A stretch of 64,000 nucleotides of DNA, taken from IMG/VR virus record IMGVR_UViG_3300028423_000861, positions 64,001-128,000 of that record, one strand, 5' to 3'. The notes under the pieces were generated by a model. It saw only the letters and a program-made list of their open reading frames with translations. It did no database searches and was not told where the DNA came from. Positions within the stretch are counted from its first letter, which is position 1; every line of letters begins with the position of its first letter. Below are positions 18,163 to 49,103 of the stretch, in pieces. The DNA comes from a virus. The translations under genes and the position numbers were made by a program.

Positions 18163-19040
18163 TAGTGAGATTACCTAAATTTCCGCGGTTGCCTTTGGAC
18201 CGTACCGTAAACCTTGCGAGTCTACGTTAATCCGTTATCCACTAAGCGCCTTTCAGCTGACTTAGTATCAACCAGTGCTGCCTAGTTTAAAGTGGTGGCA
18301 TTTCCACTATCGTTACACGCTACTCGTCCTTTGATCTTCCGCCTGCCTTGCGAGCAGTTCAGAGTCGCTAAACCCTTACGTCTTCTCTCCGAACAAACAC
18401 TTCCGCCTTGCGAGCTTCCATGCACGACATTCACCGTAGTGTGTCGTATTAAGCACCTTTAACGTGCAACTGAGGCAGTCTTTGCGTTTTTGCTATAATG
18501 CATCTGCAGGATTTGAACCCACACATTCAGTTCCTAAAGACTGACGCTCTACCATTGAGCTAAGTTGCTAACCTACCAAGACGTGCTGCCTCTTGTTGCT
18601 TCGCATCCTTTTGGGAAACGAAATACAACACGCCTAAATGCCTTTCTCCTTGCGGGATACTAAACGTCTTTTCAAGTATCCAGCTACCTCACTAGTCGGT
18701 AACTCTCAACTTTAAAGATAACAAGTTGCCCTCCTGCGCGAACAGTCGGACTATTTGTTTACCCGTTAACATTCTGTCTTCGCTAGATTGGAGTGCATAG
18801 CTTTGGCTCCCACCAAATTGTAACCTCGCCGGTTGGCCCTGGTTACTATCCTTTCGGGCATTTGCTCTAGCTTAGGACTTACCTCGCTCTTCACAAGGGG
18901 TGCGCTACGGCTTATAGGAATACATCCGTCTGCCACCTAGTCCGGGCTTGCGTAAATGGACCATTGCTGGCGCAAGTGCGTAGGCTTCCTTGCTTTGGCA
19001 GTGTTACCACTGTTATCCTCCTGGACGTCACGCCGCCCAT
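18163..19040 (-). ncRNA. GOLLD-like giant structured RNA
   Basis: ~880 nt without a long ORF; repeated CTCGCAAGG loops; GTGTTGTATTTCG..CCAAAAGG..GAAGCAAC, AAAGGTGCTTAA and 3' GTAATCTCA, recognised from memory of GOLLD; 5' end uncertain. Confidence 0.75.
18500..18568 (-). ncRNA. degenerate tRNA-like domain embedded in the giant RNA
   Basis: TAGCTCAATGGTAGAGC D-arm, TCAGT/ACTGA stem with 8-nt loop, GGTTCAAATCC, no CCA. Confidence 0.7.
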
Positions 19041-36835: not shown

Positions 36836-36922
36836 TGGTGCTAGCTGAAGGATTCGAACCTTCGACGGGCAATCGCCAACGGCTTACAAGACCGTTCCCT
36901 TCGTCCACTCGGGCAAGCTAGC
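36836..36922 (-). tRNA. tRNA-Thr(UGU), long V-arm
   Basis: ACGGT-CTTGTAA-GCCGT. Confidence 0.85.
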
Positions 36923-40685: not shown

Positions 40686-41476
40686 TCAGTTATAAATGTA
40701 GACAATACGAGATGTATAACCAAACTCATTGTCTAGTATTCTTTGCATGAGTTCTGCTTTTTGTGTTGCAGCTTGCTCTGTTCTAGCATCAACATAATCT
40801 CGCCCTAGCGAGAAGCTCTTAAGCAGCCTCTGACGTAATTTAGTTAGTATTTGATCACTGTAACTACGACGGACTTCATATCTTATACGATACTTTTCGT
40901 TCTCGCCCTGTGCGTATATAATAAAATCTGTATCTGCTGTAACAACCATGATTATCTGCTTACATAAAAGCCCGCACCGCCCCAGGATGTGCCACTAACT
41001 TTACCGTAAAATACTCGAACACCATCGCTGGTCATGAAAGAATGACTGTCTGTGACGTCTATTTGTCCATCCGTATATACGCTTATTGTTTCTTCAAAAT
41101 CACTGATAATATCACGACGTGTGCTGAGATCAATATCTGATCCGATCTTGAGAAAAGCAATATAACGACGATCGAATTGTCCTTGAGGAATGTCGATATT
41201 GTATTCTGGTTCGATCATGCTATAGCTACGAGCGATGAATTTTCCAGTATCCGGGCCACTTGGACGTTCTTTATAGCCGGCTCCAGCTTCGCTTTCCCAA
41301 GTTCGAGCAACGTCCGCCGTTACTCTCATTAAACGACTTTCAAGACTGTCAAAGTTCATGTCGATTTCTTGTATATTATTCACAGCCTCAATCAATGACA
41401 TGATCTCTCTCATCTCTCGCCCATCTGACATTATCAATACTCCTACATTATCAGTATTTATATGTCAACATAATAA

Positions 41477-41551
41477 TGGAGGACCGTCTGGGGTTCGAAC
41501 CCAGGACACGAGGATTAAAAGTCCCCTGCTCTACCACTGAGCTAACGGTCC
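41477..41551 (-). tRNA. tRNA-Lys(UUU)
   Basis: loop CTTTTAA. Confidence 0.92.
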
Positions 41552-41569
41552 ACCGTTGTTTCATGATAT

Positions 41570-41647
41570 TGGTAGACCGGGTGGGGTTCGAACCCACGTT
41601 GACAGGGATTAAGAGTCCCTCGCTAAACCAAACTCAGCTACCGGTCC
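41570..41647 (-). tRNA. tRNA-Lys(CUU)
   Basis: loop CTCTTAA. Confidence 0.92.
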
Positions 41648-41667: not shown

Positions 41668-41755
41668 TGGAGGACCGGGTGGGATTCGAACCCACGATGG
41701 GCTTGCGCCACTGGATTAAAAGTCCAGTCTCTTCGACCGCTCGAGTCACCGGTCC
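41668..41755 (-). tRNA. tRNA-Lys(UUU), long V-arm
   Basis: CTGGA-CTTTTAA-TCCAG, V-arm TGGCGCAAGCCCAT. Confidence 0.87.
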
Positions 41756-41812
41756 AGGTGAAATGCAACTATATTGTCATCCCATCCTGGACCGCTGCGT
41801 TGTCCAGGACAG

Positions 41813-41839
41813 TTAGGTTTTCTTGGCCTTGCGTTTCAT
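41813..41839 (-). CDS. Lys-rich leader peptide MKRKAKKT upstream of three tRNA-Lys genes
   Basis: AAGGA RBS, ATG AAA CGC AAG GCC AAG AAA ACC TAA, hairpin 41782-41812 follows. Confidence 0.6.
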   Translation of the reverse strand: MKRKAKKT

Positions 41840-41861
41840 TGCTCTGTCCTTTCTGTTTCAA

Positions 41862-42578
41862 TTAGAGCTGAACCTTACTGGTTCGATTAATCATAAAAGC
41901 GGCTTCGCCGTTTTCTTCAAGTAGTTTGCCCATGTCTTCAAATGTGATATAGCAATCTCCATCTATACCCCATGTTCGACCCCATGAATTGCGCAATGTA
42001 AAGTATCCTTTCTTTACATTCACCGCGCGGGCCAGGAGTGCATGGCCTCCCATAATACTTCCAGATGGTTGGATAAATCCATTTTCATCTGGCTTATACA
42101 TTCCTTCATACCATCTAACACCCAACACTGCTGGACCGTTGTAACCTACACCCAAAACTAGATCTTCAAGTCCAAATGCCCAGCGATATGATTTAAAGAA
42201 CCCAATCTTTTTCATAACTTTGATCCCAGCCAGAACACTTGTTCCTTCATACTGTGGATCTCCGCCTGGATAAACGCCACCTGGCCACGGGTCTATTTTT
42301 TGAGCTTCATGGTATACATTTTCAACCAAATAGTCAAATGTTAAACCTTTAAATTCAGCTGGTCTTGACGCTGCCTCATGTCCAAGTGCAAATCCAACAC
42401 ATGCGCCCTCGCGGCCTTGGTCAAACCATTCATTGCAACGCCAGGTATATGATCTTGGAAACTTATCAGAAACAAGTTCACTAATTGGATATTCACGGCT
42501 TCTTTCATCGAAGTTTTCTAGTCTTGTCAGTCGTGAATCCTGTGTTACGGTGCCATTTTTTAATTTTACGGATGTCAT
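41862..42578 (-). CDS. papain-like (C1A) cysteine peptidase
   Basis: DQGREGACVGFA, GGHA, RNSWG..WG..G. Confidence 0.9.
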   Translation of the reverse strand: MTSVKLKNGTVTQDSRLTRLENFDERSREYPISELVSDKFPRSYTWRCNEWFDQGREGACVGFALGHEAASRPAEFKGLTFDYLVENVYHEAQKIDPWPGGVYPGGDPQYEGTSVLAGIKVMKKIGFFKSYRWAFGLEDLVLGVGYNGPAVLGVRWYEGMYKPDENGFIQPSGSIMGGHALLARAVNVKKGYFTLRNSWGRTWGIDGDCYITFEDMGKLLEENGEAAFMINRTSKVQL

Positions 42579-42606
42579 ATCAAATCTCCCTTTACGGAGA
42601 TATTTA

Positions 42607-46013: not shown

Positions 46014-46181
46014 TTAAAAAATTTCTTCTTTTTTTGAAACTTTATAAAACAGTAGTTTGGTATCCCCGACTGGATTCGAACCAGCACCCTCCAGAGTGAA
46101 AATCTGGCGTCCAAGACCATTTAGACCGCGGGGACATCTTTCTTCGTCTTCTTCGTCTTCTTCTTCGTGTTCGTCTTCCAT
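46014..46181 (-). CDS. Glu(GAA)-rich leader ORF reading through tRNA-Glu(UUC)
   Basis: AGGAG 7 nt before ATG; MEDEHEEEDEEDEER...; 55 codons. Confidence 0.6.
   Translation of the reverse strand: MEDEHEEEDEEDEERCPRGLNGLGRQIFTLEGAGSNPVGDTKLLFYKVSKKEEIF
46058..46135 (-). tRNA. tRNA-Glu(UUC)
   Basis: CCAGA-TTTTCAC-TCTGG. Confidence 0.92.
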
Positions 46182-46198
46182 TACATTGCTCCTAGACT

Positions 46199-46232
46199 AA
46201 AAAACCCTCCTAAGCTTTTTGCTTGGAGGGTT
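46199..46232 (-). terminator. intrinsic terminator of putative attenuator
   Basis: AACCCTCC-AAGC-AAAAA-GCTT-A-GGAGGG-TTTTTT. Confidence 0.85.
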
Positions 46233-46261
46233 GCTTGAGTATACTATCTGATCTAGTTCAG

Positions 46262-46411
46262 CTAGTCTCTTGCACCCTCCCCAATAGGCTCAAAGCGATC
46301 TCCATCGAGGCGTGACTGCATAATGCCATAATTCAACGCCCAGCTTTGTTCGCTGGTATTCAGACCTTTGACGGCCTTGTTGAATATGATATGTGACATT
46401 GTTGTTTGCAT
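46262..46411 (-). CDS. 49-aa attenuator leader peptide
   Basis: ATG..TAG between promoter (TTGACG-17-TATGTT, 46471-46499) and terminator; last codons GGAGGGTGC complementary to the terminator 5' arm. Confidence 0.7.
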   Translation of the reverse strand: MQTTMSHIIFNKAVKGLNTSEQSWALNYGIMQSRLDGDRFEPIGEGARD

Positions 46412-46605
46412 TACTATCTCTGTTTGATGTAGCAGCTTTTGCTGTTACGTTTATTTATCTCTTGTTAATCAACATACGCTAAAAAATCTAACTCGTCAAC
46501 AACTTTTTTTGTTTTTTTTGACGGCAACATGTCGTCGCCGCCATGTTCTTCAATATAGTGCTTGGTGACACAAAGGTCAAGAACTTTTTTAAAATAATTT
46601 TTGCT

Positions 46606-48301: not shown

Positions 48302-49103
48302 GTTAGTCTCCTGTTGCTGGCTATTTATCAGCAACATCATTATGATGCATTTTGATATGATGCATTTTGATAAAGAATTTGTCAACTGTTATTTGTTATA
48401 CTCGGTAAGTTCTTGATCACCAAATGCTAGCTTGAACATAGTGGCATGTTCAGGGTTGCTAAATCCCAAGGTAAAATCATTACCGAACTTGCTGAAAATT
48501 TGATATTCATGGCTACTGGTATTATCTTGTAACCATTCAATGGTCTTTGCAAAATTAAGTTCATTCAACAAAAACAAATCTCTAGGAACGCGAGTCCAGA
48601 GTATTTGTTTTGCAATGCGACGCGGGTTGAGTGAACTAATATTTTTAAGCCCCAAGGCATGTTTTTCGATTTTAGTTGCTGTCATGTATCCAAGAGACTG
48701 CGACTTACATTTAACTTCAATAACATATTTGGATAAACATTTGTTCGTCGGAGACAAAGGACTCGGTTTAAAAACGACCTTGATACTAGGAACACTTTCC
48801 GAAAAATCAAATGGATTATCAGTCAGTCCATACATATCACAATACATTTTTTCGATAAACCGTGATGTTTTTTTATAATACATTTTGAGTGGTGGATAAC
48901 CACTACCAAAAATAGAATCTAGGCGTTTTGTAGGAATCCGGATTTCATAAGACATGTTATTATCAGATGTTACTCTTTTTCTTGGATTTCGCTTTTTCGG
49001 AAAATTTTTCTTTTTTATACTAGAGGACCTTGTAAAAAGATCCTCTAGTTGTTTTTCACGCTCACGTGCTCTTTTGAGAGCGTTGTGAACCCACTGTTTT
49101 CGA

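Follow-up and report, generated by a model that had tools for sequence, protein, structure and literature searches.

An eight-codon, lysine-rich open reading frame ahead of a phage tRNA-Lys triplet looks more like a worn-down gene than a lysine-sensing switch

In the 106-nt spacer that precedes the only cluster of tRNA-Lys genes of a giant phage, an eight-codon open reading frame (mini-ORF) containing four Lys codons is followed at once by a stable hairpin. Both features are real and individually uncommon, and the mini-ORF resembles the eroded remainder of a small gene more than it does a lysine-sensing switch. The best reading of the spacer, which is held here with about even confidence, is that it consists of a decayed copy of a P0002-family gene and a gene-end hairpin of a kind that is common in this phage. 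Taken alone, the unit would then be an ordinary spacer with a gene remnant and a gene-end hairpin. The family itself may matter more than the mini-ORF: it is a family of 50-residue proteins whose genes are linked to tRNA-Lys(UUU) in many phage lineages and usually end inside the tRNA.

The window, that is, the whole 64,000-nt stretch of DNA that was analyzed, comprises bases 64001-128000 of a 141,983-bp IMG/VR virus record with an estimated completeness of ~60%. This record has a G+C content of 41.6% and contains 46 tRNA genes, every one of which lies on the minus strand. The phage also encodes a CCA-adding enzyme and homing endonucleases, and GIY-YIG genes occur within its tRNA array. The Lys triplet is its sole Lys tRNA cluster. 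The features of this region are given below from 5' to 3' along the minus strand.

41862-42578, minus strand: C1A-type peptidase-like gene P0001, 238 aa (phrog_16701 'peptidase', E 1.8e-62)
41847-41851, minus strand: AAGGA, a Shine-Dalgarno-like site read from the sequence, 7 nt before the ATG
41813-41839, minus strand: mini-ORF MKRKAKKT, eight sense codons and TAA (ATG 41839-41837, TAA 41815-41813)
41782-41812, minus strand: hairpin of 11 bp including two G-U pairs, with a 9-nt loop; -16.3 kcal/mol when folded alone
41756-41781, minus strand: 26-nt linker from the hairpin to the tRNA-Lys 5' end, with no promoter-like site in its sequence
41668-41755, minus strand: tRNA-Lys(UUU), first of the triplet, 88 nt with a long variable arm (ARAGORN; Rfam RF00005, 54.5 bits)
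41570-41647, minus strand: tRNA-Lys(CUU) (ARAGORN and Rfam), 80% identical to the tRNA-Lys(CUU) of the relative G002
41477-41551, minus strand: tRNA-Lys(UUU) of canonical length, last of the triplet (ARAGORN and Rfam)

The peptidase-like gene occupies the interval that separates tRNA-Pro from the Lys tRNAs. Its start lies 28 nt past tRNA-Pro(UGG), and its stop is found 22 nt upstream of the mini-ORF ATG, in a different frame. Based on this close spacing behind tRNA-Pro, and on a site scan that lists no promoter- or terminator-like site in the spacer (41756-41861), the peptidase gene, the spacer, and the Lys tRNAs are assigned to one transcript. The 106-nt spacer would accordingly form the 3' untranslated tail of the peptidase mRNA and, at the same time, the 5' leader of the precursor to tRNA-Lys. 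Some homologs of the peptidase-like gene carry PF00112, and among the homologs found in IMG/VR and the four closest by protein search, none has a tRNA or a similar spacer behind it. The gene was not found in five relatives of the phage. It is also without a promoter of its own.

As described in the original prediction, which was made from the sequence alone, a hairpin of ~11 bp that lacks a U-tract abuts the stop codon of the mini-ORF, and both the sequence and its folding verify this description. The hairpin begins 1 nt past the stop, is built from a 5' arm at 41812-41802 and a 3' arm at 41792-41782, and is followed by ten bases of which two are U. Compared with the other gene-downstream windows of the phage, the hairpin window ranks 13th of 167, and its energy falls between the 1st (-19.6) and 5th (-16.3) percentiles of the coding controls. 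Strong hairpins, with energies of -15 to -25 kcal/mol over 45 nt, are present behind many genes, and approximately half of the strongest are without a U-tract. The gene-end hairpins suggest a factor-dependent terminator, or a processing or stability signal, that is typical of this phage, and the hairpin studied here would be one of the many strong stem-loops behind its genes. Because no promoter is present between the hairpin and the tRNAs, this hairpin cannot be an efficient terminator. Assignment as an intrinsic (Rho-independent) terminator was rejected on account of the missing U run, the absence of the hairpin from the terminator scan, and the lack of a promoter belonging to the tRNAs themselves. 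Assignment as a Rho-dependent terminator is likewise unsupported: the 57 nt after the stop, which make up the hairpin and linker, are composed of 15 G, 14 C, 14 A, and 14 T, are largely folded, and hold no long C-rich, G-poor site.

Stem-loops of the REP type, located at mRNA 3' ends, guard bacterial and phage mRNAs against 3'-to-5' exonucleases. Like these stabilizing elements, the hairpin is stable, G+C-rich, and devoid of a U-tract, and it closely follows a stop codon within a transcript that continues or is processed. The recurrence of hairpins at gene ends in the same genome also fits this class. In contrast, REP-type stabilizers form a repeated family, whereas the hairpin in the window is present in a single copy and its protective role is putative. 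The simplest role that can be proposed from general knowledge of stem-loops is that of a barrier to 3' exonucleases. Once RNase P cuts the transcript at the 5' end of the tRNA, the hairpin would block such exonucleases, and this block would in turn stabilize the upstream mRNA. A repeat search of the genome revealed no second copy of the spacer and hairpin element, and no Rfam family was found for the spacer, permissive E-values returning tRNAs and sub-threshold noise.

The mini-ORF was also found where it had been predicted, on the minus strand ahead of tRNA-Lys genes with the anticodons UUU, CUU, and UUU. Its four Lys codons are AAA (codon 2), AAG (codon 4), AAG (codon 6), and AAA (codon 7), and only codons 6 and 7 are adjacent. 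The context of its start lies at the 62nd percentile of the real gene starts of the phage and at the 95th percentile of 484 non-coding ATGs. At the local AAA plus AAG frequency of 6.7%, the binomial probability of at least four Lys residues in seven codons is 6e-4. Of the 191 ORFs of 5-30 codons that lie wholly in non-coding DNA of this strand, three are composed to at least one half of a single amino acid, and the mini-ORF is the sole Lys-rich one. A search for ATG ORFs in 27 tRNA-upstream spacers identified two that are rich in codons cognate to the tRNA that follows, the Lys mini-ORF and a Glu-rich ORF, and shuffling of the tRNA labels reproduces this Lys and Glu pair in 0.5% of trials (p=0.005). 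Together, the rarity of Lys-rich ORFs and the label-permutation result point to a non-random association that needs explanation. The association originally drawn between the mini-ORF and the Lys tRNAs is therefore probably not due to chance, but a role of the ORF in sensing Lys-tRNA and controlling the tRNA genes is unsupported. The Glu-rich ORF (window 46136-46176, minus strand) has AGGAG ahead of it, contains nine GAA Glu codons among its first 14, and reads into and through tRNA-Glu(UUC) at 46135-46058; it is located just after a strong terminator at ~46232-46197.

No close relative of the phage is present in the collections searched (IMG/VR and metagenome contigs). An exact search of both with a 25-nt piece of the long-arm tRNA-Lys gave 0 matches, the exact mini-ORF gave 0 matches in IMG/VR, and no relatives of the 161-aa gene downstream of the Lys triplet were detected in IMG/VR or metagenomes. 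Distant relatives, which carry large tRNA arrays, were reached through the ATPase gene (73% to 43% identity). Conservation, the test by which the original prediction had offered to be judged, was not found: none of the four distant relatives that were read has an 8-codon leader before tRNA-Lys, and the collections hold no closer relative. The closest relative found, G001, has no P0002-family gene, and the ORF of a GIY-YIG endonuclease ends 8 nt before its tRNA-Lys(UUU). Nothing comparable is located ahead of tRNA-Lys in G003. Upstream of the 131 tRNAs of these four relatives, one marginal cognate-rich ORF is observed, which is from G003 and has three Ile residues in a 10-residue ORF placed 136 nt before tRNA-Ile. 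No Glu-rich ORF precedes a tRNA-Glu in any of the four.

A different picture is seen in the relative G002, where the ORF directly before a Lys(UUU)-Lys(CUU) pair encodes P0002, a 50-residue basic protein (L020:1731-1883, minus strand). The N-terminal pattern of the mini-ORF recurs at the start of P0002, whose final codons and stop fall within the tRNA gene. The protein belongs to a conserved family of 70 clusters (E<=0.01) with common N-terminal and core motifs (alignment A1). In each of the seven tRNA-array contigs that were read, the family ORF extends 14-23 nt into tRNA-Lys(UUU) at its 5' end. At 50 family loci from IMG/VR, the next tRNA is Lys(UUU) at 32, Lys(CUU) at one, and Gln at one, with none nearby at the remaining 16. 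The family loci are as follows.

L020:1731-1883, minus strand: P0002-family gene
L039:1501-1650: P0002-family gene
L043:1501-1647: P0002-family gene
L044:1201-1353: P0002-family gene
L046:1201-1347: P0002-family gene
L047:1201-1359: P0002-family gene
L048:355-513: P0002-family gene
L049-L098: P0002-family loci

The family ORF commonly ends 10-24 nt inside the tRNA gene, and cutting by RNase P would thus leave a message without a stop codon. Members without an adjacent tRNA have longer C-terminal ends, several of which finish in two alanines, and they keep the same Lys-rich N-terminus, which indicates that this start is a trait of the protein. The tight pairing of P0002 with tRNA-Lys involves a tRNA that is targeted by host defence nucleases, which phage tRNAs neutralize (PMC11464382). 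Searches with P0002 gave no match in Pfam, NCBIfam, or the PDB and one weak match in PHROGs (E 0.029); the only Atlas match, to DUF7230 at 0.86, is a lead. Identification as an ArfA-like ribosome-rescue factor was considered and is unsupported by Pfam, NCBIfam, PHROG, and the PDB. No homolog of P0002 was found elsewhere in the genome of the phage, a match near window position 49000 falling inside a 256-aa ORF. Most family members fold locally in the middle of the ORF. A conserved mid-ORF hairpin homologous to that in the spacer is nevertheless unsupported, since RNAalifold gives no common structure and the z-scores are no better than those of control ORF parts.

By descent from this family, the mini-ORF would be the surviving start (RBS, ATG, and first codons) of a decayed gene, and its Lys-rich beginning would be inherited and not a sensor. 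Residues 1-4 and 6 of the mini-ORF match the consensus of alignment A1, and the family N-terminal pattern is present at only 2 of the 4552 ATG ORF starts in the genome. Like a P0002-family gene, the mini-ORF has a similar RBS and start region, and it holds the family's place, with its ATG 84 nt before tRNA-Lys(UUU) and with tRNA-Lys(CUU) next. In contrast to the family gene, it has eight codons in place of ~50 and lacks the conserved core, its ATG is 84 nt away from the tRNA in place of 133-139 nt, and the zero-frame stop occurs before the tRNA instead of inside it. Because a family with the same N-terminus precedes tRNA-Lys(UUU) in many phages, ancestry explains the Lys-rich start at least as well as sensing does.

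To compare the entire spacer with the family, a DNA profile was built from 29 distinct family genes and the spacer was aligned to it globally. The spacer scores 37.2, a value that none of 200 dinucleotide shuffles reaches (24.8 +/- 4.0) and that exceeds the best score in either set of real sequences, 30.4 among the 108 real gene starts and 30.1 among 45 stretches upstream of other tRNAs. The 29-nt head of the spacer (-20 to +9) by itself outscores all 108 real starts. The 75-nt body (+9 to the tRNA) is above every real control, but has p=0.15 relative to composition-matched shuffles. Most of the signal is thus in the start region, and the similarity is weak past the first three codons. Genome-wide searches with the family models (nhmmer and hmmsearch) did not pick out the spacer, and no match to the family core was obtained in any frame of the spacer by hmmsearch (0.4 bits for the zero-frame piece, -2.0 bits for that in the +1 frame). 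A by-eye alignment of the +1 frame to the core was set aside, as hmmsearch does not support it, and a plain local DNA alignment between the spacer and G002 is not significant (p=0.32). The absence of a family gene from G001, the nearest relative found, counts against descent, as does the second cognate case, the Glu-rich ORF, which descent does not explain. From these sequence comparisons, common descent of the spacer with the family gene is about as likely as not.

By chance, an A-rich non-coding stretch could have come to hold an RBS, an ATG, and four Lys codons, the hairpin being the gene-end stem-loop of the peptidase gene and neither element having a relation to the tRNA or to P0002. This account is unlikely, although it retains appreciable weight. 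Mini-ORFs that have both an RBS and an ATG are not rare, with 24 found on the transcribed strand over 22 kb of non-coding DNA (~1.1 per kb), a start context of equal quality is seen at 5% of non-coding ATGs, AAA is the commonest second codon among the real genes of the phage, and the unbiased nhmmer and hmmsearch searches do not tie the spacer to the family. Furthermore, very many windows were scanned, so that rare coincidences are to be expected. What speaks against chance is that the sole Lys-rich mini-ORF of the 191 non-coding ones sits in the 106-nt spacer before the only Lys tRNA cluster, that the profile alignment of this spacer is above all three control sets, and that the N-terminal pattern is restricted to two ORF starts. 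A further reading of the hairpin region, as a recombination scar, is highly improbable. In that case, the arrival of the peptidase gene or the action of a homing endonuclease would have left behind an incomplete copy of the 5' part of the neighboring tRNA-Lys, which then decayed. In favor of this, two 7-nt blocks recur in the same order in the 5' end and D arm of the tRNA, alignment to this tRNA alone reaches p=0.047 with the whole spacer and p=0.042 when restricted to the hairpin region, and GIY-YIG genes are present in the array. With all 46 tRNAs as partners, however, the alignment is not significant and 258 of 300 shuffles score as well; moreover, the region has neither a T-loop nor any other feature of a tRNA, and Rfam gives no match.

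As first proposed, the unit would be a leader peptide that controls tRNA genes, and the evidence is insufficient for such a claim here. To our knowledge, no leader peptide of this kind has been published, and the literature search returned nothing relevant on leader peptides before tRNA genes or on ORFs that overlap or end inside phage tRNAs. In this proposal, the speed of translation over the four Lys codons decides whether the hairpin forms and, through it, the processing, stability, or read-through of the tRNA-Lys precursor. The good start context (62nd percentile of real starts), the four of seven codons that are cognate to the downstream tRNAs (nominal P 6e-4), and the second cognate case before tRNA-Glu (p=0.005 for the pair) are all favorable to a sensor. 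Likewise, the stop abuts the hairpin, and in ribosome-footprint-masked folding the position of the ribosome governs hairpin formation. Phage tRNA-Lys counters the PARIS nuclease, which cuts host tRNA-Lys (PMC11464382), and phage tRNAs evade other anticodon nucleases (PMC10264068). With tRNA-Lys a target of host nucleases, a Lys-specific sensor would be biologically sensible. The masked folding, however, also shows that the hairpin survives while a ribosome is stalled at Lys codon 2 or 4 and is melted by one that occupies codons 6-7 or the stop. A shortage of Lys-tRNA would thus preserve the hairpin and, if the hairpin hinders expression, lower the output of tRNA, the opposite of what a homeostatic terminator or pause would require. 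The anatomy of the spacer is also unfavorable. The spacer offers no terminator, no promoter, no usable alternative pairing, and no C-rich, unstructured stretch for the loading of Rho, one of the two routes (processing or Rho) that had been suggested. Positions 41844-41850, which include the AGGA of the RBS, are exactly complementary to 41806-41812, the first 7 nt of the 5' arm, and the RBS is predicted to be paired before the 3' arm of the hairpin is transcribed; this 7-nt complementarity is of the length expected by chance. The resulting 7-bp helix is the only alternative structure that masked folding yields, and it provides no usable antiterminator.

Comparison with leader-peptide attenuators (trpL, hisL, pheL, thrL, and pheM of pheST) leads to a similar result. 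The description of this class follows established knowledge and PMC1183508. The unit shares with these systems a short, cognate-rich ORF that has its own RBS and is followed by a stem-loop. Unlike them, it is without the two defining features, a U-tract terminator and a mutually exclusive antiterminator. In addition, attenuators regulate enzyme operons, whereas a tRNA gene would be under control here; of the four Lys codons, no more than two stand side by side, and no conservation was detected. A separate candidate for a codon-matched attenuator of tRNA genes may lie at the head of the array (~46200-46580). The lack of matches in the exact searches of IMG/VR and metagenome contigs, the lack of a cognate-rich ORF before any Lys or Glu tRNA among the 131 tRNAs of four relatives, and the family N-terminus, which accounts for the Lys-rich start and is the same in members without an adjacent tRNA, all argue against a sensor. 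Neither anatomy nor conservation lends support to the regulatory reading, and a Lys-tRNA sensor is judged improbable. A further, speculative proposal, which is distinctly improbable, is that the small ORFs before tRNA-Lys(UUU), both the P0002 genes and the 8-codon stump with its hairpin, couple translation to the maturation of that tRNA. Ribosomes that reach the end of the ORF would unfold the tRNA precursor or the hairpin that guards it, and ribosomes stalled at Lys codons would permit processing. If this were true, more tRNA-Lys would be made when it is depleted, for example by host anticodon nucleases, and the Glu-rich ORF that reads into tRNA-Glu(UUC), within the same array, would represent another unit of this type. 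The preferred reading remains a decayed P0002-family gene with a gene-end hairpin.

Near-identical fragments of the phage were located in a single public run, a saltern metagenome (DNA), which contains a small share of the sequence words; no RNA run was listed among the matches. Contigs from this run match 41391-41552 and 42364-42589 without change, and the spacer falls outside of their coverage. At the place in G001 that matches the first tRNA of the triplet, tRNA-Lys(UUU) (L021:1565-1648, minus strand) is ~84 nt in length with an enlarged D region, of which ARAGORN calls only 76 nt. Two Thr tRNAs of the window, at 36836 and 37262, are also long, at 87 nt. ARAGORN additionally calls a tRNA with a four-base anticodon (ttag) at window 18498-18569 on the minus strand. 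Finally, a tRNA with a CUA anticodon, which reads amber codons, is found in the phage outside of the window (G000:C1:44210-44285, minus strand) and in the distant relative G003 (L035:3045-3118). TAG suppression or recoding is possible.
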